The notes: a model not told the origin generated them from the letters alone. A stretch of 64,000 bases of DNA from an uncultured Candidatus Actinomarina sp. (GCA_902634185.1 CACPJC010000002.1:32001-96000); one strand, 5' to 3'; positions 21,385-51,257 are shown, counted from the first letter of the stretch. Translations and numbers: made by a program.

Positions 21385-21389
21385 TAAAG

Positions 21390-21464: not shown

Positions 21465-21533
21465 ATTAGGTATAAAAGATTATAATCCCAAAAAAACTCA
21501 AACCAATATATTTCATTACAATAATATAAGGAA

Positions 21534-23070: not shown

Positions 23071-23109
23071 TGAATTATAATAATAATCTAAAAACGAAGT
23101 AAGTTAGTA

Positions 23110-23310: not shown

Positions 23311-23323
23311 AATTCACCTTAAA

Positions 23324-24184: not shown

Positions 24185-24272
24185 TATAAAAAAAGAATGA
24201 TTACATGAATAATGAAATTAATTATTACTCATCAATGAATACATTGATAATATAATTTAATTTAATAAGAAA

Positions 24273-24581
24273 ATGGAAATTGATTTAAATTTAATTGAAG
24301 AAAGCTGTGGTAAACAGCCTGAAAATCAAGAATTCTTTATTGTTGGAAATGATCCTAATTTTGTCTTTGAAAATGATCCTAATTTTGAAACTCTAAGATT
24401 GTTTGATATTGATGGAAATATAATTAACGTAAATTCATGGTTTGAGTGTGCAAATTACGTGAATGGTGGATGGACCTTAAATTATAGTAGCTTTAGTGGT
24501 GATGTATTTTTCTTTGGTGCTACGTGTGGATTGCTGCTTCTGTATTTTTCTATAAAAATATTTGTAAGTAAAAAAACATGA
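24273..24581 (+). CDS. Hypothetical protein with C-terminal TM helix
   Basis: 102 aa; ATGA-coupled to the next gene. Confidence 0.65.
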   Translation: MEIDLNLIEESCGKQPENQEFFIVGNDPNFVFENDPNFETLRLFDIDGNIINVNSWFECANYVNGGWTLNYSSFSGDVFFFGATCGLLLLYFSIKIFVSKKT

Positions 24582-26599: not shown

Positions 26600-27704
26600 C
26601 TTAAAGTATGTAACTTATCAAAGTTTTCCTTCTGAAAAAGCAAATACAATTCAGACTATTGATAATGTGAACTATTTAACAAAATATTTTCAAGTTGAAC
26701 TCATTTTTCCGTTAAGAGAAAAAAATAGCTCTGATGATATGAATATATTAAAAAATTACTATCAAATAGACAAAAATGTGAAAGTTCGTGGAGTATTACA
26801 TAATTATCCGTTTGGGAAAATTAAAATATTTCAGAACCTTTTATTTATTATCAGTCAGTTACTGTGGTCAAAAAAAATAGTAAAAAAAATAGGAAGTAGT
26901 AATAAAGACTATTTTTTTACTAGATCTGACTGGGTTTTTTATTTCCTTGCTAGAAAAAACAAAAGAGTGGTTTTTGAATGTCATCAATTATCAAAAACAA
27001 GAAAGTTCGTAATGAAAAAATCTATTGAGTATGATCATTCAAAAATAATTTTTCTAAATAACTTATTGAAAGCTGATTCTGGGATCGATAATAAAAAGTT
27101 TGAAGATAAATTAATAGTTTTACATAATGGTGTCGATTCTAATTTATTTAAGTCGAATACTGCTAAAGATAAAAAAAGAGTAATTTTTATTGGAAACCTA
27201 AAAAGATTTGGAGAGAATAGAAATCTTGACTTCTATATCTCTACATTCAAAAATAAAAATATGCCAATCGATTTTAAATTCACAATAATTGGGACACCAA
27301 GAGCTGAAGTTGATAGATTAAATAAATATATAAAAAAAACTGGGTTGCAGAAAAATGTTGAAGTAAAACACTGGGTCAAACGTCAAGAAGCAATTGAAGC
27401 ATTGAATAAATCAAGTATTGGGTTGTTACTAAATACAAAAAATAATGAACATTCAGTAAAATATACTTCTCCTTTAAAATATTTTGAATACATTTATGGA
27501 AAACTAAAAGTAGTAGCAACTAACTATCCAGCACATAATGACTTACCTTTTTCAAATAAGATATGTTTTTTTGAAAATGAAAATGTGGAAAGTTTTATAT
27601 CATCTTTGAAAAAAGCTGATCAAGAAGATCCCTTAAATCCTGAAGAATTGGAATCAGTAACTTTAAGAAAAAGAGCTGAGGAAATATTTAAATTTATTCT
27701 TTAG
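26589..27704 (+). CDS. GT4 glycosyltransferase
   Basis: FPSEKANTIQ, HNGVD, YTSPLKYFEY. Confidence 0.85.
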   Translation: MKTNLKYVTYQSFPSEKANTIQTIDNVNYLTKYFQVELIFPLREKNSSDDMNILKNYYQIDKNVKVRGVLHNYPFGKIKIFQNLLFIISQLLWSKKIVKKIGSSNKDYFFTRSDWVFYFLARKNKRVVFECHQLSKTRKFVMKKSIEYDHSKIIFLNNLLKADSGIDNKKFEDKLIVLHNGVDSNLFKSNTAKDKKRVIFIGNLKRFGENRNLDFYISTFKNKNMPIDFKFTIIGTPRAEVDRLNKYIKKTGLQKNVEVKHWVKRQEAIEALNKSSIGLLLNTKNNEHSVKYTSPLKYFEYIYGKLKVVATNYPAHNDLPFSNKICFFENENVESFISSLKKADQEDPLNPEELESVTLRKRAEEIFKFIL

Positions 27705-27778
27705 CACGCCTGGAGGGATTCGAACCCCCAACCCTCTGATCCGAAGTCAGATGCTCTATCCAGTTAAGCTACAGGCGC
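27705..27778 (-). tRNA. tRNA-Arg(TCG)
   Basis: GCGCCTG acceptor, TCTGA-CTTCGGA-TCAGA anticodon arm, GGTTCGAATCC. Confidence 0.95.
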
Positions 27779-33786: not shown

Positions 33787-33825
33787 ATGAGTTTTAAACC
33801 AATAAAAGTAGGAATATATGGATAA
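33787..33825 (+). CDS. Candidate leaderless 12-codon ORF overlapping the selA start
   Basis: TAAGAT-6nt-ATG; MSFKPIKVGIYG*; stop lies within ATGGATAA of selA. Confidence 0.3.
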   Translation: MSFKPIKVGIYG

Positions 33826-35113
33826 AATATCTGTAAATAAACTGGTCGAAGAAGTGAAATCTAATCTTCCAAGAGAAATATTGGTTTTAATAGCTCAAAA
33901 TTGTCTTAACAAAAACACGGATATTCAAACAACTATTAAAAATTTTGAAAACGAAGTGTATAAATATACATTAAAAGTTCAAAAAAAAGTTATCAACTGT
34001 ACTGGGACGTTGTTACATACAAACCTTGGAAGAGCACAAACTGATATTGACTTTAATGGAGAAAGTACAAATGTCGAATACGATATTTTTAATAACAGAA
34101 GAGGTAAAAGAAATGAATTCTTAAGTGAGTCAATGAACTTACTTCTAGGGTCTGATGATGTTTGCTTTGTCAACAACAATGCTTCATCGCTCTTTATAAC
34201 ACTAAAGACACTTAAAAATATTTATGGGAAAAAAACAGTAATTATTTCTAGAGGAGAAATAATTGAAATCGGTGGATCTTATAGGCTTCCAGAGATAATT
34301 CAAGAAACAGATTTGAAGATGGTCGAAATTGGAACAACAAATAAAACTAAAATAACTGACTATGAAAAAGCCCTAAAAGAAAATAAAGATGCTTTAATTT
34401 TAAAAGTCCATAGATCAAATTTTTCAATTGATGGTTTTGTAGAAGAGGTAAATTTAAAAGATTTAAAGTCTTTAACCGAAAGTCAAAATAGTATTTTGAT
34501 TCATGATCTCGGAAGTGGTCTAGTTGCAAGTAAAAAATTTCTGGAAAAAGAAAATATTGATATCTTTGATGATGAGCCAACAGTGCAGGAATCGTTGAGA
34601 CAAGGTGCAGATTTAGTTATGTTTTCAGGTGACAAACTATTTGGATCTTTACAGTCGGGAATAATAGCTGGAGATAAAAAAATGATTCAATCAATAAAGG
34701 AGTCTCCATTATTTAGGACATACCGCTGTTCTCCTTTAACTCTTTTTCAACTTCAAGAAACTACAAGTAAATATGTATCCAAAAAAGAAATAGAAATACC
34801 CTTATGGAAAATGATTTCAATGAAATATGAGAATCTAGAAAATAGAATCAGAAATGTATGTGAAAATCTTGAAATAAAACATGAAGTTGTCAATGATTAT
34901 TCTGTAATGGGTGGGGGTACTTTACCAAATAAGACTATTCCTTCACCAGTAGTAAAAATAAGTGAACTAGAAAATAAAGATCTGATGAGCAAATTAATGC
35001 TTAATGAGATCCCAATAATTCCTAGAATTAATAAAAACAATATAATAATTGATTTAAGAAGCACTTCAGAAAAAAACGATATATACATCAAAGATTTTTT
35101 TACTAAGTTATGA
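33818..35113 (+). CDS. selA: L-seryl-tRNA(Sec) selenium transferase
   Basis: VINCTGTLLHTNLGRA, VNNNA, SRGEIIEIGGSYR, LKVHRSNF, DLGSG, FSGDKL. Confidence 0.95.
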   Translation: MDKISVNKLVEEVKSNLPREILVLIAQNCLNKNTDIQTTIKNFENEVYKYTLKVQKKVINCTGTLLHTNLGRAQTDIDFNGESTNVEYDIFNNRRGKRNEFLSESMNLLLGSDDVCFVNNNASSLFITLKTLKNIYGKKTVIISRGEIIEIGGSYRLPEIIQETDLKMVEIGTTNKTKITDYEKALKENKDALILKVHRSNFSIDGFVEEVNLKDLKSLTESQNSILIHDLGSGLVASKKFLEKENIDIFDDEPTVQESLRQGADLVMFSGDKLFGSLQSGIIAGDKKMIQSIKESPLFRTYRCSPLTLFQLQETTSKYVSKKEIEIPLWKMISMKYENLENRIRNVCENLEIKHEVVNDYSVMGGGTLPNKTIPSPVVKISELENKDLMSKLMLNEIPIIPRINKNNIIIDLRSTSEKNDIYIKDFFTKL

Positions 35114-36789
35114 CAGTTATCGCTACTGCTGGACATGTAGATCATGGCAAATCTACGTTTGTAAATTTTTTAACTAAACAAGAAACTGATAGATTGCCGG
35201 AAGAAAAAAAAAGGGGCCTTACGATAAATTTGGGTTATACCTATTTTACAATTGAGGACAAAACTTATTCAATAGTTGATGTGCCTGGTCACAAAGATTT
35301 TTATAAAAACACAATATCTGGATTTGCTAATGTAGATGTAATTCTGTTTGTGATAGATTCAATTCAAAACTGGTCTGAGCAGTCCGAACAGCATTTTCAA
35401 TCATTAGTTTCACTAAACAAAAAAAATTTTATATTTGTATTTACAAAAATTGATCTACTTGAAGGTGAGATAAAAAAAGAATTCTTAAGTGAAAAACTAG
35501 ATAATAATCAAGATATTAATTATCTCATTTTGGAGTTCAACAAAGAAACCTCTAGCAGAAGAGCATTTTGTGAATCTATTCATAATTTTGTTAAAACTTG
35601 TAAATTTGAGAAAAAAACACCGCGACTATGGGTCGATAGAAGTTTCACAATTGATGGAACTGGAAAAGTTGTTACCGGTACAGCAAGTAAAGATCTGGAT
35701 TATGAAAATATTATATACAATCTACATAACGAAGAACTTCAAATAAAAGAAGTTCAGAGCAGAAATCAGAAGAATGATAAAAATGATGTAACAAAAAGAG
35801 TGGCATTGTCTTTAAAAAAAACAAACAAAAATTTTCCCAGTAGAGGCGACCTGCTAACAAATGAAAAAATTAATTTTTCAAACAATTTATTTATCGAATT
35901 AAACAATCGAGATGTGGATAGATCCATTTTCAAAGGAACCTTAAGACTTTTTTTTGGAACAAATAATGCACATATATCAAAAATAAAATTGATAAATTCT
36001 GAAAATGAGACTTTTGCAATTTTAAGTCTATCCAAAGCAGTACCAATTCCAATTTTTGAAAATCTACTAATTCAAAATATAGACAGAGATAAATATATCG
36101 GTGGAAAGTTCTTACTATACCCTGATAAAAACCAATTTTTAAAGCTGAACAAAAAGATTAAAGATAAAATCAAAATAAATAATTTATTAGATATTTTTGA
36201 CTTTTTAGATATGAAATTCTTCAAGATTAATGAAAACTTCAAACAAATAGAAAATCTATATGTCAATGAATCAGTTGTTGAAAAGATTTTTGAAGATTTA
36301 AAAAGTAATACAGATTCAATAAATAAGGCTGGTGTAAAAGATTTCTTTCAAGATAACTATCAAATATCAATAGAAATATTAGAACAATTGACAAAAGATA
36401 AAGAAAATATAACTATTTCAAATAACCAAGTAATTAAAAAAATAGATAACTTTGAAGCACTAGAAAATCAATACATAAAAATTAAAGAACTACTTGGTAA
36501 AACATTGGAAGTAAACATTATTAATACAAAAGAATTTGATAGGGATGAATTAAAAGATCTTTTTTTATCCAAAAAAATTTACAGAGTTGATTCTAAAATC
36601 ATTATCTCCGATACACATTTGAAACAATTAGTTGAGATTGTTGGATTTATGTCTGATGAATTTTCTGTAAAAGATTTTAAAGATAAATCTAATCTTTCAA
36701 GAAAGTATGCAATTCCTTATCTGGAATTGCTTGACAAGATCGGAGTGACTCAAAAAATTGATAAAGCTGGATCGAGAAAAAAACTTTAA
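35110..36789 (+). CDS. selB: Selenocysteine-specific elongation factor
   Basis: ATAGHVDHGKST, EEKKRGLTINLGY, DVPGH, DRSFTIDGTG, C-terminal LSRKYAIPYLE winged helix. Confidence 0.93.
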   Translation: MTVIATAGHVDHGKSTFVNFLTKQETDRLPEEKKRGLTINLGYTYFTIEDKTYSIVDVPGHKDFYKNTISGFANVDVILFVIDSIQNWSEQSEQHFQSLVSLNKKNFIFVFTKIDLLEGEIKKEFLSEKLDNNQDINYLILEFNKETSSRRAFCESIHNFVKTCKFEKKTPRLWVDRSFTIDGTGKVVTGTASKDLDYENIIYNLHNEELQIKEVQSRNQKNDKNDVTKRVALSLKKTNKNFPSRGDLLTNEKINFSNNLFIELNNRDVDRSIFKGTLRLFFGTNNAHISKIKLINSENETFAILSLSKAVPIPIFENLLIQNIDRDKYIGGKFLLYPDKNQFLKLNKKIKDKIKINNLLDIFDFLDMKFFKINENFKQIENLYVNESVVEKIFEDLKSNTDSINKAGVKDFFQDNYQISIEILEQLTKDKENITISNNQVIKKIDNFEALENQYIKIKELLGKTLEVNIINTKEFDRDELKDLFLSKKIYRVDSKIIISDTHLKQLVEIVGFMSDEFSVKDFKDKSNLSRKYAIPYLELLDKIGVTQKIDKAGSRKKL

Positions 36790-39891: not shown

Positions 39892-40170
39892 ATGGGTGCA
39901 ATTTGGGCAGTTATTTCTTTGTTGGCAGTTTGGCTAATTTATGGATTGATTGCTTCAATATTTGTAAAAGGTGTCACAAGTAGAGATGGCTTAAAATTAA
40001 TTTTTGCTGGAATGTTGGGTGGATATTTGGGTGGTCAAGTTGGAATATTCATGGATGTTCCAGAAAATTTATGGTGGATGAGAGAAGTAACAAAATTATT
40101 ACTTACAATAGGAAGCTTGAATGTTATTCATCGACTTGGATTTATTAAAAAAAGAGGAGAGCAAGCTTAA
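39892..40170 (+). CDS. Small membrane protein, GlsB/YeaQ (transglycosylase-associated)-like
   Basis: YGLIAS, GMLGGYLGG; 3 TMs. Confidence 0.55.
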   Translation: MGAIWAVISLLAVWLIYGLIASIFVKGVTSRDGLKLIFAGMLGGYLGGQVGIFMDVPENLWWMREVTKLLLTIGSLNVIHRLGFIKKRGEQA

Positions 40171-40445
40171 TTTTTTGGAATCCTTGCTGCTTTTAGCAAG
40201 TTTCCATTTTCATCAATAACACCACATCGTTTTGATAAAAGTTTTGTATTAAATAAGAAAAGATTTTTTTTCCAAATAGCTAAGTATCCGTAGCCTCCAA
40301 CAGTATCTAATTTTTCAAGGGCTTGTACTAACGAAGAAGTATCTTCTGCAATAACTACAGGTAATTCTTGATATGTTGCATCCCATTCTTCTGAAGTTTT
40401 GACTCTTCCAGAATTGAGTAAGTGATCTTTTAAACTACTCATCAT
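40167..40445 (-). CDS. Hypothetical protein at the end of the PTS operon
   Basis: Start probably MMSSLKDH (40445), overlapping the HPr stop. Confidence 0.6.
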   Translation of the reverse strand: MMSSLKDHLLNSGRVKTSEEWDATYQELPVVIAEDTSSLVQALEKLDTVGGYGYLAIWKKNLFLFNTKLLSKRCGVIDENGNLLKAARIPKN

Positions 40446-40782
40446 CAACTGTTTCAAATACTTGTAATTCATCTTCTTCAATATTTTCATTATCAAAGTC
40501 ATCTTTACTGCTGTAGGCTTCTGTTCTCCAGTTTATTAAATTTTCCATAAGTTTTTCCTCGTCACTACCAGTTATATGTAAATCAATAATTGAAAATTGC
40601 TTAGGTTCTATCTTGAATAAACTAAGTAAACTTTTACCATTTGCTACTTTATCACCAACTTTTATTTCAACGTCACTATCAAATTGCTGGCAATATTTTA
40701 CAAATTCACTTCCAGGTCTTGCGTGAAGACCAGGATAAATTAATATTTTTAGTTTTTGTGAAACAGAAATTTTAGCCTCCAA
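40435..40782 (-). CDS. ptsH: Phosphocarrier HPr with acidic C-terminal tail
   Basis: GLHARP (phospho-His), NGKSLLSL (regulatory Ser), GSDE. Confidence 0.92.
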   Translation of the reverse strand: MEAKISVSQKLKILIYPGLHARPGSEFVKYCQQFDSDVEIKVGDKVANGKSLLSLFKIEPKQFSIIDLHITGSDEEKLMENLINWRTEAYSSKDDFDNENIEEDELQVFETVDDE

Positions 40783-41851
40783 GCATGTTCAAATATTTTT
40801 CATAATTTTTATCTTGATTCCAAAAATTTTTATAAAAATTTGATCTTCCTAAGTTTAATACTTCTTTTTTAAAGTCGTTAAAACCTTCAATATCCTCAAA
40901 TGAATCATTAAAAATAATATCTAATACTTTCTTAAATCCAGTAACACTTTTATCATTGTTTATCAAAATATCTAATGGTTCTTGGAATCTCTCATTGTAA
41001 GAAAATTTAATTCCTGGATTTCTTGCAACTCTAAATAGTTGATCTTTAACTTCTGTATTTGAGAATCGATCATTTATAGTATTTTTAAATTTAGTTAATT
41101 CCTCTATTTCATCTTTACCAAGCAAAAATATACTTTCTAAAATTTCCAGAGATATTTGATCTATAAATATTTTTGAAGCATCATTTTGATATAACTCGTG
41201 CATATATTCATATTTTTCTGATAGTCCATAATAAGCAAGACACAAATGAAGGCCATTTAACATCCATAGCTTTTTTTTAAATTCATAATCATATTCACCT
41301 TGCTTTATAACGCCTGATGGTTTCAAAGGTAATGGGCCCTCTTTATCAAATACAATTGAACCATACTCTTCAACGTAAACATCCAAGTTATCTTTTGACT
41401 GTAAAGGAATAATTTTATCGATGACTACATCAATGAAAGTAATATTTTTGTTATCAATATCTGACTCGTTTTTTGCAGTTGTAGAAGCTCTGTATTTATT
41501 TTCAAATGCAACAAAATTTATACTTTTAGGGAGATCTAAATTAGATATCAAGTATAAAACACTATTTACATACTGTGGTCCAACCGATGTAGATACAAAA
41601 TCACAGTTACTAATTAATGATTGAATTTCGCTGGAGTCAGATAGATTCAGTGCTTTTATATTTGAGACCTTGATGCTTTCTTTACTAGATCCAATAAAAT
41701 TTACACTATATTCTTGGTTTGTATTTAATTTATTTACAAGATCAGAATCTACATCAACTAAAACTACTTCGTAGCCATTTTCCTGAAGTATGGGTGTTAT
41801 GAAGCCTCTTCCTATGTTGCCAGCGCCAAAATGTAATGCAGTTTTAGGCAT
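40772..41851 (-). CDS. mtlD: Mannitol-1-phosphate 5-dehydrogenase
   Basis: ALHFGAGNIGRGFI, KLWMLNGLH, RFSN, RVARNP..K. Confidence 0.92.
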   Translation of the reverse strand: MPKTALHFGAGNIGRGFITPILQENGYEVVLVDVDSDLVNKLNTNQEYSVNFIGSSKESIKVSNIKALNLSDSSEIQSLISNCDFVSTSVGPQYVNSVLYLISNLDLPKSINFVAFENKYRASTTAKNESDIDNKNITFIDVVIDKIIPLQSKDNLDVYVEEYGSIVFDKEGPLPLKPSGVIKQGEYDYEFKKKLWMLNGLHLCLAYYGLSEKYEYMHELYQNDASKIFIDQISLEILESIFLLGKDEIEELTKFKNTINDRFSNTEVKDQLFRVARNPGIKFSYNERFQEPLDILINNDKSVTGFKKVLDIIFNDSFEDIEGFNDFKKEVLNLGRSNFYKNFWNQDKNYEKYLNMLGG

Positions 41852-42294
41852 TATTCACTGCTAAGTATCGTGAATAGCTCATCTACTGAATCTGTTCTCC
41901 ATAGTTTTTGTGCATCTTCTTCTGATTCAAGAGCATCACTTAATGATGCTAGTACATTCATATGTTCATCACTATTTGCTGCAATTGCTATGACTATGTA
42001 AACTTTTTCATCAAGCCAATCTACTCCATTAGGTATTTGTAATACACTAATACCGGTGTTTTTGATATGTTTAAACCCATCTGACATTCCATGAGGTATT
42101 GCAACTCCTGCTCCTGGAAGATAAGTTGTATATGGATGTTCTAAGACTTTTTCTTTCATTGATTCGATATATTCTTGTTCAATATACCCATTATCTAACA
42201 ACAATTTTCCAGCTATATCAATACTTTCATTTAGATCATTGAAATTTTGATCTACCAATATGGATTCTTTAATTAATACTGGTTTAGATGTCAT
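41851..42294 (-). CDS. mtlF: PTS EIIA, mannitol/fructose family
   Basis: TTYL..GVAIPHG, QIPNGVDW, IAA..DEH. Confidence 0.9.
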   Translation of the reverse strand: MTSKPVLIKESILVDQNFNDLNESIDIAGKLLLDNGYIEQEYIESMKEKVLEHPYTTYLPGAGVAIPHGMSDGFKHIKNTGISVLQIPNGVDWLDEKVYIVIAIAANSDEHMNVLASLSDALESEEDAQKLWRTDSVDELFTILSSE

Positions 42295-42611
42295 GTAGAA
42301 GTTATGGTGTTTCCTTCTGCCAAGTCTTTAATTAGTTTATTCAAAGATGGATCATTCATGAACATTATGTATTGAATTAACACTGCATTATCAGGTGCAG
42401 ACTGCTTAGCAACTCCAGCCAATCCTTGATGTGTCACAACAATATCTGTATCGCTTGGTATTTGTGTGGCTGGAGAGTGAACGATTTCAACTTCCAAACC
42501 AGCTTTCTTTGCTTTCTTAATAAGACTGTTCTTTACCATTAAACTTGATCCGGCTCCTGCTTCACAGGCTAAACATATTTTTTTTACATCCGCCGCTTCG
42601 ATTGAACTCAT
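42291..42611 (-). CDS. Stand-alone PTS EIIB, mannitol type
   Basis: ACEAGAGSSLM phospho-Cys motif; SD GAAAGGA before ATG 42611. Confidence 0.88.
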   Translation of the reverse strand: MSSIEAADVKKICLACEAGAGSSLMVKNSLIKKAKKAGLEVEIVHSPATQIPSDTDIVVTHQGLAGVAKQSAPDNAVLIQYIMFMNDPSLNKLIKDLAEGNTITST

Positions 42612-42623
42612 TGTATTCCTTTC

Positions 42624-42661
42624 AAAAAAAATTGGCTTGGAAGTCTCCTCCCAAGCCAATT
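42624..42661 (-). terminator. Intrinsic terminator-like hairpin between EIIC and EIIB
   Basis: AATTGGCTTGG-10nt-CCAAGCCAATT followed by a T-run on the minus strand. Confidence 0.75.
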
Positions 42662-42682
42662 ATAACTAATTTTTTTTAGTTC

Positions 42683-43750
42683 TTATACATCAACTCCTGG
42701 AATTGAAGTATCGATAGCTTCGTCGACTCCAGCGTCTGTTTCTTTAATTGGTCGAACTCTCAATAAGATCGTTCCAACTACTGCAGCTGCAACAGCTCCA
42801 ATAGCAACACCAATCAGAACATTCGCACCACCACTTCTAGGTAACATTGCTAAGTATGCAAAAATACTACCCGGTGATGGAGGTCCAATAAGACCAGCGT
42901 CTGTGGCTACCCACCATAGATCGGCAGAAATTCCACCAGCCCACATTGCAACGATCATAATTGGATGACCTAATACATATGGGAAGTAAATTTCATGAAT
43001 TCCACCGAAGAAATGAATAATTATAGAACCCGGTGCTGATTGTTTCCACATTCCAGTTCCTGCAATGTAGTATGCAATAAGCAATCCTAGACCTGGTCCA
43101 GGATTTGATTCAAGCATGTAATATATTGACTTTCCTTCTTCTGCAGCTTGTGCAGCTCCAAGAGGTGTCAACACACCGTGGTTCACAGCATTGTTTAAGA
43201 ACAACACTTTTGCAACTTCAATAGGTATGTCAGCTAAAGGAACTAGACCGGCATCAACGATACCAGCAGCAAAGTTTCCTAAGCCGTCTGCAATTGCTTG
43301 GAGAATGTTTGCAAGAAATGAATAAACAAATACTGCAAGTCCCCAACCAAGGATACCTGATGAGAAGTTGTCATATAACATCTCAAAACCTTCCGGTACA
43401 TTATCACGGAGTCTTGCATCAAGTTCTTTAAGAACTTTTGCTGCTCCAGGTCCAACTAACATAGCACCAAAGAATTGTGGACTGTCTGTTCCGACAATAG
43501 CTGCCATTGTGACAACTGCGCCGATAACTCCACCTCTGTGGCCATATATCATTTTTCCACCGGTATAACCGATTAATAATGGGAGAAGGTTCACAATCAT
43601 TGGTCCGACCATGGAGAACAAATCTCCATTTGGTACCCAGCCATTTTCATGGTACAGGGATGTAATTAATCCCCAAGCGATGAAGGCACCAATGTTAGGA
43701 ATAACCATTCCTGACGCAGCACCACCAACGCGTTGTATGAATTCTTTCAT
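42683..43750 (-). CDS. mtlA: Stand-alone PTS EIIC, mannitol family
   Basis: SGMVIPNIGAFIAWGLITS, AKVLFLNNAVNHG, ESNPGPGLG, HFFGGIHEIYFPYVL. Confidence 0.93.
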   Translation of the reverse strand: MKEFIQRVGGAASGMVIPNIGAFIAWGLITSLYHENGWVPNGDLFSMVGPMIVNLLPLLIGYTGGKMIYGHRGGVIGAVVTMAAIVGTDSPQFFGAMLVGPGAAKVLKELDARLRDNVPEGFEMLYDNFSSGILGWGLAVFVYSFLANILQAIADGLGNFAAGIVDAGLVPLADIPIEVAKVLFLNNAVNHGVLTPLGAAQAAEEGKSIYYMLESNPGPGLGLLIAYYIAGTGMWKQSAPGSIIIHFFGGIHEIYFPYVLGHPIMIVAMWAGGISADLWWVATDAGLIGPPSPGSIFAYLAMLPRSGGANVLIGVAIGAVAAAVVGTILLRVRPIKETDAGVDEAIDTSIPGVDV

Positions 43751-43769
43751 ATTTTTTCAATCCCCCTTT

Positions 43770-43825
43770 AGATTGATCAATCTGTCACTCTTTGTAACAA
43801 ATATGTGACATTGGTAATATCACAT
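43770..43825. promoter_or_regulatory. Cluster of candidate operators upstream of mtlA
   Basis: Perfect palindrome AGATTGATCAATCT (43770-43783); GTCAC-n5-GTAAC-n6-GTGAC (43784-43809); ATGTGA-n11-TCACAT (43803-43825). Confidence 0.5.
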
Positions 43826-43962
43826 ACTCTAATTATAAAAAATAAAACTTTGCCTTTCATACGTCTTCAAAAATTTTTTATTTATAAGTTGTAACTTTGG
43901 ATTAAGTTGGCAGTCATTTAAACCTAATTTTCGCTTATAATTTAATGAAATAGGAGGTTTAA

Positions 43963-44556
43963 ATGGATGTTGAATCAACAATGTTACCGTTAGGAACGAA
44001 AATGCCAAGCTTTAATTTACTAGGCATTGACGGTGAAATGTATGCAAGTGAAATGTTTGATGGAAAAAAAGGTTCTCTTGTGATGTTTATATGCAATCAT
44101 TGTCCTTTTGTTAAGCACGTTAATGAAGAGATAGTAAATTTAAGCAATGAAATAATGGGAAACGATATCGGTGTAATAGGGATTAATTCAAATGACAGTA
44201 GTCAAGAAAAATATGCAGAAGATAGCATTGATAAAATGAGAGAGTATGCAGATAACTTAGGATACAATTTTCCATATGTTGTTGATGAAGATCAATCTGT
44301 TGCAAAAAATTTTACGGCGCAATGTACACCTGATTTTTTTCTTTTTGATAGTGATCAAAATCTTGTTTATAGAGGTCAACTTGATGGCTCTAGACCTGGC
44401 AACGATGTGCCAACAAATGGGGAAAGCCTAAGAAGCGCTATTCAGGCCTTGTTAAAAAATGAAGATCCAATCTCTGAGCAACTTCCAAGTATGGGGTGCA
44501 ACATTAAATGGAGAGTGGGCGAAGAGCCGGATTATTTTTTGAAAGTAAAAGGTTAA
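43963..44556 (+). CDS. Thioredoxin-fold AhpC/TSA (peroxiredoxin-like) protein
   Basis: FICNHCPFV, AQCTPDFF, YRGQLD, SMGCNIKW; SD AGGAGG. Confidence 0.9.
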   Translation: MDVESTMLPLGTKMPSFNLLGIDGEMYASEMFDGKKGSLVMFICNHCPFVKHVNEEIVNLSNEIMGNDIGVIGINSNDSSQEKYAEDSIDKMREYADNLGYNFPYVVDEDQSVAKNFTAQCTPDFFLFDSDQNLVYRGQLDGSRPGNDVPTNGESLRSAIQALLKNEDPISEQLPSMGCNIKWRVGEEPDYFLKVKG

Positions 44557-45077
44557 TCTAAATCTTGAATCTGAATAAAAAGTCTTCTTGGACGCGCACA
44601 ATCTAATTCAACAAAAAAGAGACGTTGCCATCTTCCTAAAATAATTTCAGAATCTACAACAGGTAAAGAAACTGAGGTTGAACCAATAATAGAACCTCTT
44701 ACGTGAGATCTCCCATTTACATTTTCATCTTCTTGCATGTTTTCTGTTCTTAAATCCCAATCATCATGCTCGTAGTATGAATCTGAAGGTATGAGTTCTT
44801 CTAATTTTCTTTTAAAGTCATTAATGTACCCTGTTTCGGATTCGTTAATAATTATTGCTGTAGTTGTATGTGGGGTTGATATTGTTACGGAACCATGTGA
44901 AACTTTTGAAGCTAAAATTAAGTTTTGAATATTTTCAGTAAAATCACAGAACTGATTTGTTTCCTGTGTATCAAAATGTAAAGCGTAAGTTGCAGATTTG
45001 TTTGATGTTGATTTGTTAAGTTCTACCAAATCAGATTTAACAACATCTGCACCAATTCTTTGATTAGGTTTTTTCAT
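44553..45077 (-). CDS. yjbQ: YjbQ/UPF0047 family protein
   Basis: PHTTTAIIINE, YEHD, NGRSH, LGRWQRLFFVELD. Confidence 0.9.
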   Translation of the reverse strand: MKKPNQRIGADVVKSDLVELNKSTSNKSATYALHFDTQETNQFCDFTENIQNLILASKVSHGSVTISTPHTTTAIIINESETGYINDFKRKLEELIPSDSYYEHDDWDLRTENMQEDENVNGRSHVRGSIIGSTSVSLPVVDSEIILGRWQRLFFVELDCARPRRLFIQIQDLD

Positions 45078-45127
45078 AGTAAACTCAAATTTTATAATAA
45101 CAATTTGATAATTTATTCAGTATTTAT

Positions 45128-46336
45128 TCAACTATTTTGTGATAACCAATACTTATAAAGCTGATTGTCGGTTATATCGATATTCTCAATCTCAATTGGT
45201 TCACCTTTTTTAACTTCAGAGTTCACGATATTGTTCTCGGCTATACCTAATGGAGCAAGATTTTTTGAATTTTCTACTCTCATGGCCTTTCCATATATAT
45301 TTTCTCCGCCGATTGAACCAAGATTTGTTCCAGCTTTTAGATCTTTTTTTGAATGCGCAACCACTTCAACGTTCCATTTTTTTGCACTTAGTTGTGTTTC
45401 TTTCTCAACCATTAACTTCATGATTGTTCTTGGAATCTCTAAGCTTGTTAAGTGATAAGGTCTATATAAAGTCCAGTATGGACCTTTTCCCATTTTTAAA
45501 TACTCCATTTCATAATTTACATAATCATCTTCTGAATAAACTATTGCAAAAACACCTGGTGCTACCCCAAACGCAAAATCAACAACATTTGTATTTTCTA
45601 GTATCCCTCCAGATGTTTTAGGAATAAAAATAGAATTTAGTTCATCATAAGTAGAGTTAGGTCCGTGCATTCCATCAATATCAATATCAAAATCAAGATA
45701 ATTTGCTAACGCTGCCATCTCAATCATTGTTTTACTGCCATCAACAAAGCTTGTTAGCATATAGGGGTTCATTTTCTTTTCTTTGGCTTCTTTTTCAAGA
45801 TCCATTGGAGTTTTAAAGACATCAAAAGGATTATTCTTACCTTTACCAATTGCAACTACATCGAGGGAAATTTCTCTTGCAAAATTAAATAACTCAACTG
45901 CTGCAACTGGTTCATCTCCATCTCCAACAGTCACGATGGTGTTGTTTTTCTCTGCCTCTCTATTTAAAGCTAAACCTATCGTTGCTTCTGTCTCGACATT
46001 TAATAAAATCAAATTAATGTTTCTATTTAAAACCTTAAATGCAACTTCAGCTCCTGAGGAAGGTGTTCCTGTTGCTTCTATGACTATATCTAAATCCTGA
46101 TCATCGAGTGAATCAAGATTAGTTGAAATTGTAATATTATTTTTCTGGTTGTATTTGCTTCGAGCCATATCTAATTTGTTTTCGTTTTTGTCAACAATTA
46201 GAACAAGATCTGTATCTGGCATTTTGTTGATTTGAGTGACAATACCCTGACCCATTTGTCCAGCACCAACTAAGGCAACTTTTGTTTTTTTACCTCTTTC
46301 TTGAACAAAATCTGAATATCTATCTAATAAACTCAT
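45128..46336 (-). CDS. NAD(P)-dependent oxidoreductase with C-terminal SAF domain (homoserine dehydrogenase-like, COG4091 type)
   Basis: VGAGQMGQG, EATG, NVETE, GDEP, SFVDGSKTMIEM, YRPYHL, KKDLKAG. Confidence 0.85.
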   Translation of the reverse strand: MSLLDRYSDFVQERGKKTKVALVGAGQMGQGIVTQINKMPDTDLVLIVDKNENKLDMARSKYNQKNNITISTNLDSLDDQDLDIVIEATGTPSSGAEVAFKVLNRNINLILLNVETEATIGLALNREAEKNNTIVTVGDGDEPVAAVELFNFAREISLDVVAIGKGKNNPFDVFKTPMDLEKEAKEKKMNPYMLTSFVDGSKTMIEMAALANYLDFDIDIDGMHGPNSTYDELNSIFIPKTSGGILENTNVVDFAFGVAPGVFAIVYSEDDYVNYEMEYLKMGKGPYWTLYRPYHLTSLEIPRTIMKLMVEKETQLSAKKWNVEVVAHSKKDLKAGTNLGSIGGENIYGKAMRVENSKNLAPLGIAENNIVNSEVKKGEPIEIENIDITDNQLYKYWLSQNS

Positions 46337-47013
46337 TTATTTCCATACTCTTCTAGTTTTAATTTAATAGTTTCTAGATCTTCTTTATATGTTATTTTCA
46401 GATTGAGGTCAGAGCCTAAAATAACTTTTGATTCAATATTCAAATTTTTTGAAACTTGTTGAGTTGTATCGTGTGAAATCATTTCATCTTCAACATTAAT
46501 AAGGTAGGCCTTTTCTAAAATTTCATATTCAAATATTTGGGGAGTTTGAATTTCAACAAGATTATCTTTTAAAAGCTTTTGCGATGTTTTACTGTATAGG
46601 CTGGTCTCTATGTAAGGAGAGCAAGATCCATGTGTTTTTGCTTCTGTAATTAGTTCCTTCAATAAGTCTTCTGGTAGAAAAGATCTTGCACAATCATGAA
46701 TTGCAACTAAATCATTATTATCTACGTCCATTAATTTTAAAGTATTTAGAGCAAAAATCTCGCTTTCTTGTCTTGTCTTGCCTCCTAGAATTAATTCAAA
46801 TTTCTTATCAATTACATATGAATTTAGAATTTCTTTTGTTTTTTCTATATTGGTTTCATTACAAACAATAACTATTGAGTCGATATCGTCACAGTTTAAA
46901 AAAGTTTCGATTGGATATCTAATAAGCTCTTTATCTTTGTATAAAGCAAATAGTTTATCTGACTCAAATCTTTCACTTAAGCCAGCTGCAAGCAGTATTC
47001 CAAAAACTTTCAA
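46333..47013 (-). CDS. IspD/TarI-family cytidylyltransferase with a shortened arm region
   Basis: LLAAGLSERF..DK, GGKTRQES, HDCAR, QTPQ, NLKITYKED; no DTxK or DR arm motifs. Confidence 0.85.
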   Translation of the reverse strand: MKVFGILLAAGLSERFESDKLFALYKDKELIRYPIETFLNCDDIDSIVIVCNETNIEKTKEILNSYVIDKKFELILGGKTRQESEIFALNTLKLMDVDNNDLVAIHDCARSFLPEDLLKELITEAKTHGSCSPYIETSLYSKTSQKLLKDNLVEIQTPQIFEYEILEKAYLINVEDEMISHDTTQQVSKNLNIESKVILGSDLNLKITYKEDLETIKLKLEEYGNK

Positions 47014-47020
47014 TATATTT

Positions 47021-48634
47021 TTATGATATGAGTTTTCTTAAACTTTGAGAATCTGTTGAAGAAAGAATTTCCTCTTTTTTTATATGGGATAAATTTTCTT
47101 TTGCATGAATAAGTGAATTGATTATCTTTGGTCCTTGAGATGGAGCAATACTAAATACTCTAAGTCCAAGTAGGTATAAGATAATTGATGAGTCTTTATC
47201 CGAAGCCATATCTCCACATACAGAGACTTCGATATCATTCTTAAGTCCATTATCGATTACATTACTAATTAGTCTAAGTACAGACACATCAAGAGGGTCT
47301 TGATATTTGTTTAGTGTGGAAAGACCCCGATCAGCTGCATATGTGTATTGAATTAAGTCATTAGTTCCTATTGAAAAGAAATCAACATGTTGAATGTATT
47401 GATCAGTATTTAATGCAACAGAGGGTGTTTCAACCATTATCCCTAAAGGAGGTGGGTTAACATTTAATTTTTTAGATTCATCTGTGACTATTTTTTTAGC
47501 ATCCAGAAAATCATCAAGAATAGAAACCATTGGAAACATTATTTTTACTTTTTCTATCAGATCTGAACTAAGAATTGAAATTATTTGTTCTCTAAAAAGA
47601 TCTTTTTCATCTAAAGAATATCTTATTCCTCTTACCCCAAGAAATGGGTTTTCTTCTTTAGGTAAATTTAAATATGGAACTTGTTTGTCGCCACCTATGT
47701 CTAAAGTTCTAAAAACAATAGTGTTAGAAAATTTTGTATTTAATTCATTATTAATTTCTATTTGTTCTTTTAATGTAGGTTTTGAGGATCTATCAATATA
47801 CACAAATTCAGATCTAAATAGGCCAACTGATTTTATATGGTCATCATTAAAAGCATTTATCTCTTCACTGCTACCTATATTTGCTCTAAGTTCAATACCT
47901 AAGTCTTTGATTGAATCTTGATTATATGACTCTCTTAATTTGTTTATTTTATTCAAACCTTCTTCAACTTTTTTGAGAACATCCGATGTTGGATCTAAGA
48001 AAATTTCTCCTGTATCTCCATCTAATACAACACTTTTATTAAAATCTGTATCGATTTTTGTAATATCAAAATTTATCACACAGGGTATTCCTAAATTTTT
48101 AGCAACAATTACAGCATGAGATGTAGGTCCTGCATTGGATACAACGAAACCCTTTACTTTTGTGAGGTCTATAGATGAAGTATCATTTGGTGTTAAATCA
48201 TCAGCGAAAATAATTACATCCTCATTTAAATTTTTATCTATAACAATATCCTGCATTGTAAAAATGATTTCTTTACCTAAAGAAATTATGTCTTCGGCTC
48301 TTTGTTTAAAATACTCATCTTCAAAACTAAGCATTTGATCTGATATGTCTTTAAAAACTTGAAAAACCTCTAAAAGATTTTGGTCTTCATCGACCATTTC
48401 AACTATCTCAGGGTCATTTATTAGCAGACGATATGCATCTAAAACTTTTGATTCATCTTCTCTGTTTTCTTTTTCTAGTTCACTAATAAGCTGTTCATAT
48501 CGCATATCTAATTTGCTTTGACTTTCTTTAAAACTCAGCTTCTTAGGAATTGAAAAATCTATTTCATTATTAATAACGTAAAATTTACCAAGACCAATAC
48601 CGGGAGAAACTCCTGATCCTTTGTAAGTGTCCAT
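47021..48634 (-). CDS. ptsI: PTS enzyme I
   Basis: GPTSHAVI, GLFRSEF, RTLDIGGDK, ENPFLGVRGIR, SIGTNDL, VCGDMA. Confidence 0.96.
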   Translation of the reverse strand: MDTYKGSGVSPGIGLGKFYVINNEIDFSIPKKLSFKESQSKLDMRYEQLISELEKENREDESKVLDAYRLLINDPEIVEMVDEDQNLLEVFQVFKDISDQMLSFEDEYFKQRAEDIISLGKEIIFTMQDIVIDKNLNEDVIIFADDLTPNDTSSIDLTKVKGFVVSNAGPTSHAVIVAKNLGIPCVINFDITKIDTDFNKSVVLDGDTGEIFLDPTSDVLKKVEEGLNKINKLRESYNQDSIKDLGIELRANIGSSEEINAFNDDHIKSVGLFRSEFVYIDRSSKPTLKEQIEINNELNTKFSNTIVFRTLDIGGDKQVPYLNLPKEENPFLGVRGIRYSLDEKDLFREQIISILSSDLIEKVKIMFPMVSILDDFLDAKKIVTDESKKLNVNPPPLGIMVETPSVALNTDQYIQHVDFFSIGTNDLIQYTYAADRGLSTLNKYQDPLDVSVLRLISNVIDNGLKNDIEVSVCGDMASDKDSSIILYLLGLRVFSIAPSQGPKIINSLIHAKENLSHIKKEEILSSTDSQSLRKLIS

Positions 48635-48704
48635 AGAGTAAAGTTAGTGAAATATTTTTATATTGCAATACTTCTTAGTTGTTAAAGATTGTATCTTTGT
48701 ATTA

Positions 48705-49070
48705 ATGGAAATATTAGAAATTATTATTGATAAAAAATTGTTATCTTCTAAAGATATTGAGGAGCTTGGAATAGTTGAAAATCAATGCTTAAAGCTTGTT
48801 AACTTTAAAAACAGTAGTGATTTAACAGTTGATGATGAAGTTCTTGAAAATTTTGATTGTGTCGTAACTGCAAATGAATTAGGCAGTGCAATCAAAAAAA
48901 TTTCAGATGGAAAAATTGTTGAACATCTGAATAGAGAAAACTATAAAAAACTTACTTATCCATTGTTTCTAAAAAGTGAAACTTTTTTAAAGTTCTTGAA
49001 GGAAAATAATTCAGAATGGAATATGATTAAATTCTTAGAAAATCATACTTTTTCGATTAATCAGATTTAA
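48705..49070 (+). CDS. Non-catalytic IspD-like fragment protein (arm region only)
   Basis: VVTANELGSAIKKISDGKIVEHLNRENYKKLTYPLFL aligns by eye to the IspD arm (APVRDTMKR...HTVDRNGLWHALTPQFF); no N-terminal AAGxGxR. Confidence 0.55.
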   Translation: MEILEIIIDKKLLSSKDIEELGIVENQCLKLVNFKNSSDLTVDDEVLENFDCVVTANELGSAIKKISDGKIVEHLNRENYKKLTYPLFLKSETFLKFLKENNSEWNMIKFLENHTFSINQI

Positions 49071-49899
49071 TCCTTGAATCATAAATCACTTGGGATATTC
49101 CGACAAAAATAATAAGAACAAAACCTATTAACTGGCTTAGAGATATTACTTCATCTAATAAAATAATCCCTAAAATAACTCCAGAAGTTGGCTCTAAATA
49201 GGTAATGGTGCTTACGGATAAAGGTTTAATAATTTTTACTACATACCAATATGTTGTAAGGCCTATGGCTGTTAAAAAAATTCCAAGAAAAAGACTTATG
49301 CCTATATTCTCTATCATCCATCCAAAGCCTTGAGTTGTAAAATAAAGCATCACGAATCCTGCAGAAATCAATTGTGCAAATGCAATATTTAAACCGCCAA
49401 ATACAGATGTATAATATTCGCCAATTGTTATCAAAAAAGATAAACTTATTGCACTTAAAATCCCAAAAATTAATCCACTTATCGAATTGATAGATCTAAC
49501 CTCTAGCAAAATTATCAAGCCACTAAATCCAATTAAAATAATTAAAATTTGAATTATTGTTAATTTCTTTCCACGAATTCTTTCAATAATTAGAACAAAA
49601 ATAGGATAAGAAAAAACTAAACCTATTCCAACGGCTACGCTATTTCTATCTATAGATTCAAACATTGTTGCCCAGTGGATCGCTAACAAAGGTCCTAAAA
49701 TTAATCCTGGCTTAATTAAAGCTTTAAAATTTACTTTTTTGTTGATAAAGAATAATGAAAGAAAAATAGAGCCGATAAATGTTCTTATTCCCACGAGACT
49801 TAATGGGCTTATATCAGTGGTTTTGATAATTATGGGTATGGTTCCCCATGAAATAGCTAAAACTGTTATTGCAGCGTAAGCTCCAAAAGTTTTATTCAC
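49057..49899 (-). CDS. EamA/DMT transporter
   Basis: About 10 TMs, SWG, YPIF, YLEP repeats. Confidence 0.88.
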   Translation of the reverse strand: MNKTFGAYAAITVLAISWGTIPIIIKTTDISPLSLVGIRTFIGSIFLSLFFINKKVNFKALIKPGLILGPLLAIHWATMFESIDRNSVAVGIGLVFSYPIFVLIIERIRGKKLTIIQILIILIGFSGLIILLEVRSINSISGLIFGILSAISLSFLITIGEYYTSVFGGLNIAFAQLISAGFVMLYFTTQGFGWMIENIGISLFLGIFLTAIGLTTYWYVVKIIKPLSVSTITYLEPTSGVILGIILLDEVISLSQLIGFVLIIFVGISQVIYDSRIKSD

Positions 49900-51257
49900 T
49901 AATCTTGTTGTCTTGAATAATTAGAAAACTGTGTATATTCCTTACTAAAGTAAAGATCTACTTTTCCTGTTGATCCAGATCTATGCTTTACAATATTAAC
50001 TTCGGCAACACCTGGGGTTTCTGTAGCTGGATTGTAATAATCATCTCTATAAAGCATCATCACAATATCAGCATCTTGTTCAATAGCTCCTGATTCTCGA
50101 AGATCACCTAATCGTGGTCTTTTATCTTCTCTTGCTTCCGCTGCACGATTTAACTGTGATAGAGCAATGATTGGAACTTTTAACTCACGGGCTAGATTCT
50201 TTAAGTTTCTACTTATTTCCGCGATTTCTTGCTGTCTATTGTCTCCAGACATACCCTGCATTAATTGAAGATAGTCTACAACAATAAGATCAAGACCTTT
50301 TGAGGATTTAAGCCTTCTAGATTTTGCTCTAATGTCTGTCACTGTGATTACAGAAGCATCATCAAAATATAGAGGCATATTGTTTACTTTTGAAGCTGCT
50401 TCAACAACACGGGACCACTTTTCAGGACCAAGTTGACCTTTTCTTGCATCTCCTGAGGTAACCTTTGCTTCAGAAAATAATACTCTTTGAACTAATTCTT
50501 CTTTTGTCATTTCAAGTGAGAAGAAAGCTGTGACTTTGTCTTCTTTTGAAACATTTGTCGCAATGTTTAATGCAAGCGATGATTTACCCATACTTGGTCT
50601 TGCAGCGATTACAACAAGGTTTCCTTCTTGAAGCCCAGCAAGTACTGAGTCAAGATCTGCAAAATTTGTTGCTAAACCTGAAAGACCAGTACCCCTATTT
50701 TCAATTTCTTCAATTCTCTCAATTGCATCATTTAATACATCTGAGACCCCAATAAGTCCATCTCCAATAGCATCATCTGAGGCGGTAAATATTGACTGCT
50801 CAGCCTCATCCATAACATTTGATATATCCTTATCAAGGGCATAAGCTAAAAGCTCTATCCTTCCACTAGCTTTGAGTAGTTTTCTTCTGTTTGAATGTTC
50901 GAGAACAATTTCAATATATCTCTCAAAGTTTGCTGAACTAGGTACATTTTCTATCAATCTTGCAATAGATGAAGTTTTTAAACTTGTAGTATTTTTATTA
51001 TCTTTAAAAACAGTCTCTGAAACAGTAACGCTATCAATTGGTTTTCCTGAATCAAACAAGTCTTTCATTGCCTCAAAAATTGTTTGATTTGTAGGACTAT
51101 AAAAATCTGATGATTTAACTGATTCCATTAATCTATTTGCAGCATCTCGAGATAAAAGTGCACTTCCCAGTAGTGCCTCTTCAGCCTCAATACTATTTGG
51201 AGGTGCTTTTTGAAGGCCGTCTAAATCTCTATTTGATACTGCTTCCGGTCCAGCCAT
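49899..51257 (-). CDS. dnaB: Replicative DNA helicase
   Basis: AARPSMGKS, FFSLEM, IVVDYLQLM, LSQLNR, DLRESGAIEQDAD. Confidence 0.98.
   Translation of the reverse strand: MAGPEAVSNRDLDGLQKAPPNSIEAEEALLGSALLSRDAANRLMESVKSSDFYSPTNQTIFEAMKDLFDSGKPIDSVTVSETVFKDNKNTTSLKTSSIARLIENVPSSANFERYIEIVLEHSNRRKLLKASGRIELLAYALDKDISNVMDEAEQSIFTASDDAIGDGLIGVSDVLNDAIERIEEIENRGTGLSGLATNFADLDSVLAGLQEGNLVVIAARPSMGKSSLALNIATNVSKEDKVTAFFSLEMTKEELVQRVLFSEAKVTSGDARKGQLGPEKWSRVVEAASKVNNMPLYFDDASVITVTDIRAKSRRLKSSKGLDLIVVDYLQLMQGMSGDNRQQEIAEISRNLKNLARELKVPIIALSQLNRAAEAREDKRPRLGDLRESGAIEQDADIVMMLYRDDYYNPATETPGVAEVNIVKHRSGSTGKVDLYFSKEYTQFSNYSRQQD

Follow-up and report, generated by a model that had tools for sequence, protein, structure and literature searches.

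The ptsI-ispD-DRL-yjbQ locus

The locus described here lies in a stretch of 64,000 nucleotides from the genome (G000) of an uncultured Candidatus Actinomarina sp. (the window, G000:C2:32001-96000; all coordinates are positions in the whole window). It consists of four genes on the minus strand. The first, ptsI (47021-48634), encodes Enzyme I of the phosphotransferase system (PTS), a protein of 537 amino acids with three phosphoenolpyruvate (PEP)-utiliser domains (TIGR01417, 397.3 bits; cut-off 341.7). It is followed after a gap of 7 bases by ispD (46333-47013), whose product of 226 amino acids belongs to the family of the cytidylyltransferases of MEP (2-C-methyl-D-erythritol 4-phosphate) (PF01128, 97.9 bits; cut-off 27). 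The third gene (45128-46336), which overlaps ispD by 4 bases, encodes an oxidoreductase of the DRL/DXR-II type with 402 amino acids, and the fourth, yjbQ, starts 50 bases further on and encodes a UPF0047/YjbQ-family protein of 174 amino acids (44553-45077; PF01894, 97.6 bits; TIGR00149, 91.7 bits, cut-off 67.75). The initial annotation of the window had reported this run with exactly the same gap, overlap and spacing, and its family assignments of PtsI, IspD and YjbQ are borne out by the profile scores. It interpreted the run as a pathway of polyol phosphates and CDP-polyols, an interpretation that can be retained in part: the tight coupling of the genes and their conserved link to the PTS stand, but the wall-polyol pathway does not. 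Judging from the sequences, ispD and the DRL gene most likely displaced the native dxr and ispD and form the only encoded route from DXP (1-deoxy-D-xylulose 5-phosphate) to CDP-methylerythritol (CDP-ME).

Four RNA libraries, from three studies, contain contigs that match the locus with a likeness of 90-100%. These contigs bridge the yjbQ-DRL junction (44491-46268, X14; 44446-45708, X19), the DRL-ispD junction (45459-46586, X16) and the ispD-ptsI junction (46823-47418, X14), and are consistent with transcription in the sea. The genes are presumably co-transcribed; assembled RNA contigs are no proof of a single transcript, and carry-over of DNA is possible.

The DRL/DXR-II protein

The initial annotation had described the oxidoreductase as a SAF-domain protein of COG4091, a group without an established substrate, and the source annotation of such proteins is 'predicted homoserine dehydrogenase-like protein'. 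Both descriptions should be corrected. The protein is a member of the DRL/DXR-II family, an alternative type of DXP reductoisomerase. It matches the DRL_cat profile (PF21135, "Oxidoreductase DRL, catalytic domain"; cut-off 27) with 205.6 bits, and its residues 12-385 align with the solved DRL of Brucella abortus (3UPY/3UPL) with 267 bits and an E value of 2e-78. A comparison with look-alikes confirmed the DRL_cat family and gave nothing further. The gene is present in a single copy in G000.

The family was analysed by Carretero-Paulet et al. (2013, PMC3847144), who, in the accessible part of the paper, describe a DXR-II clade of 53 sequences, 11 of which were verified by complementation, and two sister clades, DLO1 and DLO2, which failed to complement. 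According to the same text, K191, K193 and T229 (Brucella numbering) anchor fosmidomycin and the substrate, G121, T229, H250 and V351 are typical of DXR-II, and E174, F178, R320 and Y322 belong to the dimer interface. When the window DRL is aligned to 3UPY, the three anchors are identical, and G121, H250 and all four interface residues are kept. An NAD(P)-binding GxGxxG motif (GAGQMG, residues 24-29) is invariant in eight aligned Actinomarina sequences, which come from both locus forms described below, type A and type B. K191, K193, T229, G121, R320 and Y322 are also invariant among the eight. Position 250 differs with the form of the locus, with His in type A (five sequences) and Asn in type B (three sequences).

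A family search of a library of representatives at 50% identity (E<=1e-30) found 154 clusters, of which 150 were considered; 54 of these 150 representatives were left out of the tree for their length. The resulting tree of 121 sequences contains 96 representatives of 380-480 amino acids, 5 sequences from Actinomarina and 20 from other Actinomycetota, and its clades were labelled by residue signature, without the sequences of PMC3847144 itself. Two clades, of 19 and 35 sequences (support 98 and 100), are without K193 or T229, and position 229 is S/T/A/H/N in one of them and L/M/Q/V/I in the other, a pattern that resembles the one reported for the DLO clades. The window protein is outside both. 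It belongs to the remaining 67 sequences, 60 of which have K-K-T/S-H/N at positions 191, 193, 229 and 250. Within these it falls into a clade of 12 sequences (support 98), which is shared by the type B DRLs and by three proteins from more distant Actinomycetota (L132, L133 and L138). This clade is part of a group of 31 (SH-aLRT 89) that also holds P0133, which of four representatives tested is the nearest to the Brucella DRL (528.7 bits, compared with 314, 399 and 300).

The IspD-like protein

The window IspD is the sole strong match to its family in G000, the runner-up scoring 31.6 bits. Its nearest solved relatives are the IspD structures 1VPA (72.8 bits) and 5DDT (67.8 bits), followed by the ribitol-5-phosphate enzymes 6XHP (59 bits) and 4JIS (55.8 bits). 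With the TarI model NF001183 it reaches 90.2 bits, the cut-off being 166. In the alignment to 1VPA, the Arg, the Lys, the HDxAR motif and the C-terminal K-[IV]-T motif all match. We take these to correspond to the catalytic Arg/Lys/Lys and the HDxxR motif of IspD, that is, R20, K27, K213, D106 and R109 of the E. coli enzyme. The same residues are common to the ribitol-5-phosphate enzymes, and the substrate is therefore not fixed by them.

The protein is only 23-27% identical to the IspDs of relatives from the same class, Acidimicrobiia. In a tree of 22 sequences, a branch with a support of 99 separates 11 housekeeping sequences of the class from 8 Actinomarina IspDs together with 3 IspDs linked to PTS-DRL clusters; four sequences with matches below 180 amino acids were dropped from this tree, in which a composition bias was flagged.

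The MEP pathway and the loss of the native genes

The G000 assembly has a length of 974 kb in 16 contigs, contains no N and is 83% complete by marker genes. IspF (144.5 bits), IspG (401.8 bits) and IspH (257.8 bits) score above their cut-offs, and IspE reaches 137.2 bits, just under its cut-off of 138.7. IspF is encoded on another contig; as the initial annotation had stated, the YgbB/IspF domain is absent from all open reading frames (ORFs) of the window in a profile search. The classical DXP reductoisomerase, DXR-I, was not found in G000 by profile search, and is present in 0 of 22 relatives of the genus vs 16 of 16 relatives of the class. The distribution of DRL is the reverse, with 29 of 38 genomes of the genus and 0 of 16 of the class. 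HMG-CoA reductase was found in none of 12 genus genomes searched, and the mevalonate pathway was rejected as the route to isoprenoids. The genome accordingly combines a single ispD with IspE, IspF, IspG and IspH and with no HMG-CoA reductase, and these are, on genomic grounds, the circumstances in which the initial annotation held its wall-polyol interpretation to be refuted.

The ancestral sites of both native genes can be recognized. A relative from the class (L026) has the order frr-cdsA-dxr-rseP, where in G000 frr-cdsA is separated by 16 bases from rseP-ispG. Likewise, disA-carD is followed in G000 after 23 bases by ispF-cysS, at a site where relatives of the class have carD-ispD (L084), ispD-ispF (L086, L087) or a fused IspDF (L077, L089). 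The classical dxr and ispD have thus been cleanly deleted. The empty sites, the single IspD and the absence of DXR-I are the reason why ispD and the DRL gene of the window are taken as the replacements.

The link to the PTS and the two forms of the locus

G000 encodes no Enzyme I besides PtsI; the only other tblastn match is a PEP-utiliser protein on contig C6 that is 27% identical. HPr and the only Enzyme II (EII) genes observed in G000 are in the same locus, and PtsI is therefore predicted to be the single general PTS Enzyme I of the cell. The EII genes form, with HPr, a mannitol-family operon on the minus strand (40435-43750, from the profile matches of its five genes), which encodes IIC (42683-43750; TIGR00851, 396.5 bits, cut-off 468.4), IIB (42291-42659; PTS_IIB domain), IIA (41851-42294; PTS_EIIA_2 domain), an MtlD-like dehydrogenase (40772-41851; NF002651, 212 bits, cut-off 269) and HPr (40435-40782; TIGR01003, 50.5 bits, cut-off 47.9). 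The initial annotation had placed the four-gene run just upstream of this operon. Run and operon share one strand; yjbQ is, however, separated from the operon by a redoxin gene of the opposite orientation.

Synteny of the locus extends to all 14 relatives fetched. Among the 28 genomes of the genus that have an IspD match, 27 carry ptsI next to ispD on the same contig. Together with the bridging RNA contigs, this shows that the arrangement is not due to chance. Ten of the 14 loci have the form of the window, called type A, in which yjbQ and the redoxin gene occur together. The other four (L035, that is G022, 5481-12069; L036; L038; L039) are of type B, lack yjbQ and have the order ptsI, ispD, gutM, srlA, srlE (in two pieces), srlB, DRL, E1α, E1β, lipoyl protein and mtl operon. 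The lipoyl protein has 101 amino acids and a TDKV lipoyl-lysine motif. The type B DRL is 45% identical to the window DRL; a homologue search with it returned near-identical marine variants only and no distant relatives. The glucitol-type cluster (GutM, SrlA, SrlE, SrlB, E1αβ and the lipoyl protein) does not occur in the window, which, of the type B genes ahead of the mtl operon, has only ptsI, ispD and DRL. One genome, G046, has IspD and DRL copies of both types, on contigs C5 and C26; its assembly may be a mixture of strains. In another, G021 (L041 6574-10192), a clean loss has removed ptsI together with all of the mtl/HPr block, and ispD-DRL-yjbQ-redoxin is kept; PtsI was not found anywhere in its assembly.

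Outside the genus, DRL_cat is present in 66 of 401 Actinomycetota genomes sampled, a tally that takes in two unpublished genomes (G084 and G179). Twenty loci were fetched, chosen for family spread and for the length of their contigs, and searched with the Actinomarina proteins by tblastn. SrlA, SrlE, SrlB, DRL, E1α, E1β and the lipoyl protein are all found in six of them (L126, L129, L130, L133, L134 and L138), and DRL, E1αβ and the lipoyl protein in two more. An IspD homologue is present in four of the 20, three of which are complete clusters; a PtsI is encoded close by in three loci, an HPr in four. In eleven loci, DRL is the only one of the queried proteins. One example, L133, was confirmed with Pfam and has a SorC-type regulator, EII genes, DRL, E1α, E1β and HPr, as well as a ptsI-ispD-HAD hydrolase operon, and its lipoyl protein is known from the tblastn match. 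In L132, from a genome of 1.7 Mb, IspD adjoins DRL and PTS genes are absent. The link to PTS genes, without whose conservation the initial annotation would have dropped its interpretation, is thus conserved within the genus as well as in distant Actinomycetota. Because type B recurs outside the genus and its DRL shares a clade with that of the window, type B is taken as the ancestral, widespread form, of which the window would be a reduced derivative.

A low-GC actinobacterial family with DRL in 28 of 28 genomes is organized differently: in L122 and L139, a DRL with Ser229 lies beside ApbE and an Rnf operon, and no PTS or MEP genes were found near DRL in this family. Within the genus, seven genomes (G001, G006-G009, G011 and G015) have no PtsI, IspD or DRL, and the locus was considered as an accessory island for this reason. 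The idea was dropped because the syntenic region itself is missing from those assemblies, so that absence of the genes is not shown: the flanking DnaB was not found in five of five tested (G001, G006, G008, G009 and G011), a CNNM neighbour is missing in four of the five, and dnaB is at a contig end in G007 and G015. One of the five assemblies without DnaB is a single contig. The region may be hard to assemble owing to variable islands.

Proposed function and alternatives

We consider it probable that ispD and DRL are the only route from DXP to CDP-ME, that they displaced the native dxr and ispD, and that their linkage to ptsI was inherited from a larger PTS cluster. DRL would turn DXP into MEP using NAD(P)H, and IspD would convert MEP to CDP-ME, which would be passed to IspE, IspF, IspG and IspH encoded elsewhere. 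PtsI would be a general Enzyme I working with HPr and the mannitol-family EII of its own locus. The ancestral cluster would have contained a glucitol-type PTS, DRL, E1αβ, a lipoyl carrier and IspD, and descent of the pair from a PTS-linked actinobacterial cluster of this kind would account for the position of ptsI ahead of ispD. In the window, the reduced type A form of this cluster, YjbQ and the redoxin would be passengers specific to type A. The identities of the enzymes are well supported, and we infer the direction of the DRL reaction and MEP as the substrate of IspD. As G021 and L132 keep IspD and DRL without a PTS, it is argued that the pair works without one.

Several observations weigh against this reading. 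Position 351 of the window DRL is Asn instead of the Val typical of DXR-II. Functional DXR-II is known from bacteria without any MEP pathway, and Finegoldia has it without other MEP or mevalonate genes (PMC3847144, accessible part), so that membership of the family is no proof of a role in isoprenoid synthesis. The window IspD scores 127.3 bits on the TIGR00453 equivalog model, under the cut-off of 181.3, as do all 28 Actinomarina IspD matches (127-150 bits), and it is only marginally closer to the solved IspDs than to the ribitol-5-phosphate cytidylyltransferases. The assembly is only 83% complete. The adjacency of ptsI and ispD in 27 of 28 genomes and in the distant family of L133 is beyond what a historical accident needs. 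Finally, no DXP synthase, DXS (TIGR00204), scores above cut-off in G000 or in 22 relatives of the genus (0/23), so that this reading has to assume another source for its proposed substrate DXP.

DXS is above cut-off in 11 of the 16 relatives of the class. The other five (G025, G030, G033, G035 and G037) have DXR-I without it, which hints that a DXS-independent source of DXP may exist more widely in Acidimicrobiia. When the DXS proteins of six class relatives were compared with G000 by tblastn, only two genes were matched, at 22-30% identity. One is a transketolase (TIGR00232, 703 bits) and the other a fused E1α-β 2-oxoacid dehydrogenase of 668 amino acids, which is located on contig C3 (L006 1432-3438) and followed by E2. 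Since it shares the domain order of DXS, the fused protein is a candidate for forming DXP as a side activity. In E. coli, suppressor mutants of aceE and ribB form DXP independently of DXS (PMC3424233, accessible part). In the aceE suppressors the E1 of pyruvate dehydrogenase can supply DXP, and E1 proteins are at hand here as well, as the fused E1αβ of G000 and as the extra E1αβ beside DRL in type B; unlike the naturally DXS-less genus, however, the aceE and ribB cases are laboratory mutants. We know of no natural DXS-less MEP pathway that has been shown to use a solution of the E1 type. An endogenous DXS-independent source of DXP, for example a side activity of the fused E1αβ, is our best guess. 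The MTA-isoprenoid shunt was also considered and was rejected, the RuBisCO-like protein being found in 0 of 12 genomes.

A bolder and more tentative version, which we hold to be possible and clearly the less probable of the two, is that the locus is the remnant of an undescribed actinobacterial pathway for uptake and use of 2-C-methyl-D-erythritol, on which Actinomarina has become dependent. The glucitol-family PTS would deliver MEP, DXR-II would run in reverse and convert MEP to DXP, and DXP would be split into an acetyl unit and glyceraldehyde 3-phosphate by an E1αβ that resembles acetoin dehydrogenase and has a lipoyl carrier of its own; the IspD of the cluster would divert MEP to isoprenoids. 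DXP is an acetoin-like hydroxy-ketone, and the sequence from methylerythritol through MEP and DXP to the acetyl unit and glyceraldehyde 3-phosphate, with IspD as a branch, would be chemically coherent. Actinomarina would have dropped DXS, DXR-I and the native IspD, and would scavenge methylerythritol or deoxyxylulose from the plankton or use another source of DXP. Such a pathway, if true, would explain functional DXR-II in bacteria that lack the MEP pathway, such as Finegoldia.

It is also conceivable, if rather unlikely, that no DXP is made at all and that exogenous 2-C-methyl-D-erythritol or 1-deoxy-D-xylulose is imported and phosphorylated to MEP or DXP by the PTS. IspD would then take MEP directly, DRL would interconvert MEP and DXP, and the mannitol-family EII would be the importer in the window. 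The suggestion of the initial annotation that a PTS-made polyol phosphate feeds IspD survives as a live hypothesis in this form, with methylerythritol as the polyol and CDP-ME as the CDP-polyol. The absence of DXS, HMG-CoA reductase and the RuBisCO-like protein fits such salvage, as do the near-constant adjacency of ptsI and ispD, the glucitol-type EII genes between ispD and DRL in type B, and the PTS-DRL clusters in six of the 20 actinobacterial loci, three of them with IspD. The DRL gene of type B presumably holds the place that the polyol-phosphate dehydrogenase gene srlD has in the gut operon of E. coli. There is a precedent in Salmonella: growth of a dxr mutant can be supported by exogenous methylerythritol, which the cells take up and convert to MEP by phosphorylation (PMC3994034, accessible part). 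Here too the PTS would supply MEP and bypass both DXS and DXR, and in sister strains and other Actinomycetota glucitol-family EII genes are directly beside those of IspD and DRL. A 2004 study by Testa, Cornish and Poulter, to go by its title as cited for the Salmonella work, reportedly found that the sorbitol PTS transports 2-C-methyl-D-erythritol. The Salmonella case is, however, a laboratory rescue through the sorbitol transporter without dedicated genes, whereas the genomic linkage described here is conserved and the EII of the window is of the mannitol family only. The absence of a glucitol-type EII from the window counts against salvage. So does G021, which keeps ispD and DRL without ptsI, HPr or any of the EII genes found in G000; ptsI was lost in it along with the mtl operon, and so appears tied to that operon. 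The five class relatives that have DXR-I without DXS above cut-off hint at an endogenous source instead.

Less probable still is that DRL is a catabolic dehydrogenase for a hexitol or pentitol phosphate produced by the PTS, and that IspD is beside it by history. The fuller clusters do resemble catabolic operons, with DRL after the EII genes and with a SorC-type regulator and E1αβ/lipoyl genes, and the bacteria that have DXR-II without MEP genes (PMC3847144, accessible part) agree with a function of this kind. It would leave the genome without an enzyme that makes MEP, despite the presence of IspD through IspH. In addition, the three fosmidomycin anchors and the diagnostic residues G121 and H250 are kept, the window DRL is outside the two non-signature clades, and the IspD-DRL adjacency persists without a PTS in G021 and L132. 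The original proposal that the IspD-like enzyme makes a CDP-polyol, as TarI or the Campylobacter CDP-6-glucitol enzyme does, and that the oxidoreductase modifies it for surface glycans, has the lowest probability of all and is very hard to maintain. The TarI/TarJ route makes CDP-ribitol. In these routes, as here, a cytidylyltransferase of the IspD family has an NAD(P)-dependent oxidoreductase as its partner, and the window IspD is nearly as close to the solved TarI proteins as to IspD. PF01128 enzymes make CDP-ribitol and CDP-6-fructose/glucitol, and in the Campylobacter CDP-6-D-glucitol route the PF01128 enzyme acts with a reductase (PF01370) of the short-chain dehydrogenase/reductase (SDR) family in a glycan locus (PMC10918830, accessible part). 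The only hint in the window is a weak RXYLT1_C match (29.4 bits, 6398-7279) in a large glycan island (623-28570). The island is 16 kb away, beyond argS, a glnA-like gene, selA, selB and a WhiB gene. Whereas the known CDP-polyol routes have a TarJ-type or SDR partner inside a capsule or teichoic acid locus, the partner here is DXR-II, with no TarJ or SDR (PF01370) gene adjacent and no adjoining glycan genes; neither the 55 ORFs of the window that were scanned nor 17 ORFs of the locus matched Glyphos_transf or LicD at E<=1e-6, and nothing ties the pair to the glycan island. The score with the TarI model is far below its cut-off. The window protein is the sole IspD of a genome with retained IspE to IspH and, unlike the enzymes of the CDP-polyol routes, would have to serve as the housekeeping IspD.

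Relation to known systems

The closest known counterpart of the proposed DXP-to-MEP step is the DRL of Brucella abortus, one of the 'class A' bacteria, which is of the same Pfam family and has the same anchoring and dimer-interface residues. The absence of DXR-I and the presence of the later MEP enzymes are also shared with class A bacteria, as far as these are described in the accessible part of PMC3847144. The Actinomarina system differs from that of Brucella in the overlap with ispD, the upstream ptsI, the lack of a detectable DXS and the Asn in place of V351, and its activity is a predicted one. The host is different as well: this genus belongs to Actinomycetota, and the table in the accessible part of PMC3847144 lists Actinomycetota under DLO1/DLO2 and none under DXR-II, for which the text, too, mentions other groups only. 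For Actinomarina itself, PTS uptake of mannitol and sorbitol is mentioned in the accessible text of PMC7771536, in which isoprenoids and the MEP pathway are not.

The enzymes are thus of known kinds, the DXR-II of Actinomarina being a new member of its family. What is new is a DXR-II/IspD pair that replaces both native genes, is joined to ptsI, occurs in a genus in which no DXS was found and would descend from a conserved cluster of PTS, DRL, E1αβ, lipoyl and IspD genes. The literature searched, which included few subscription journals, has no description of a link between DXR-II and the PTS or of methylerythritol catabolism beyond the uptake of methylerythritol by Salmonella, nor of the PTS-DRL-E1αβ-lipoyl-IspD cluster. 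Provided that the identities are right, the essential isoprenoid pathway of a streamlined and very abundant marine actinobacterium relies on the rare DXR-II, and the genus offers a concrete example in nature of an MEP pathway without a recognizable DXS. The conserved association of DXR-II with a glucitol-type PTS, E1αβ/lipoyl proteins and IspD provides a testable hypothesis for the role of DXR-II outside isoprenoid synthesis, and bears on whether methylerythritol or deoxyxylulose is an exchanged metabolite.

Neighbouring genes and other features of the window

The gene of the redoxin/AhpC-TSA family (43963-44556, plus strand; PF08534, 61.2 bits) is convergent with yjbQ and overlaps it by 4 bases. 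In the mtl operon, a hairpin of 14 pairs with a T run (42630-42661, minus strand) is located between the stop of IIC and the probable start of IIB; it is terminator- or attenuator-like. A scan of 40000-50000 for promoters and terminators was uninformative (31 promoter-like sites vs 48.6 expected), and a search of Rfam at the gathering threshold gave tRNAs alone, without any riboswitch close to the locus.

The glycan island contains genes for many glycosyltransferases, three FkbM methyltransferases, a WecG/TagA protein, a Bac_transf sugar transferase and an ABC transporter, and five tRNA genes are found inside it (20656-27778). Both selA and selB (33818-36789) are present in this genome of about 1 Mb, with no tRNA-Sec reported in the window.

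On the other side of the locus, 28 bases separate ptsI from a divergent, conserved ORF of 135 amino acids (48663-49070, plus strand) without a Pfam or NCBIfam match, which is followed by EamA, dnaB, rplI, rpsR, ssb and rpsF. A counterpart of the ORF is present in 13 of 14 related loci, the fourteenth (L039) ending before that position. Its identity across the loci is 31-68%, and it is therefore evolving faster than its neighbours.

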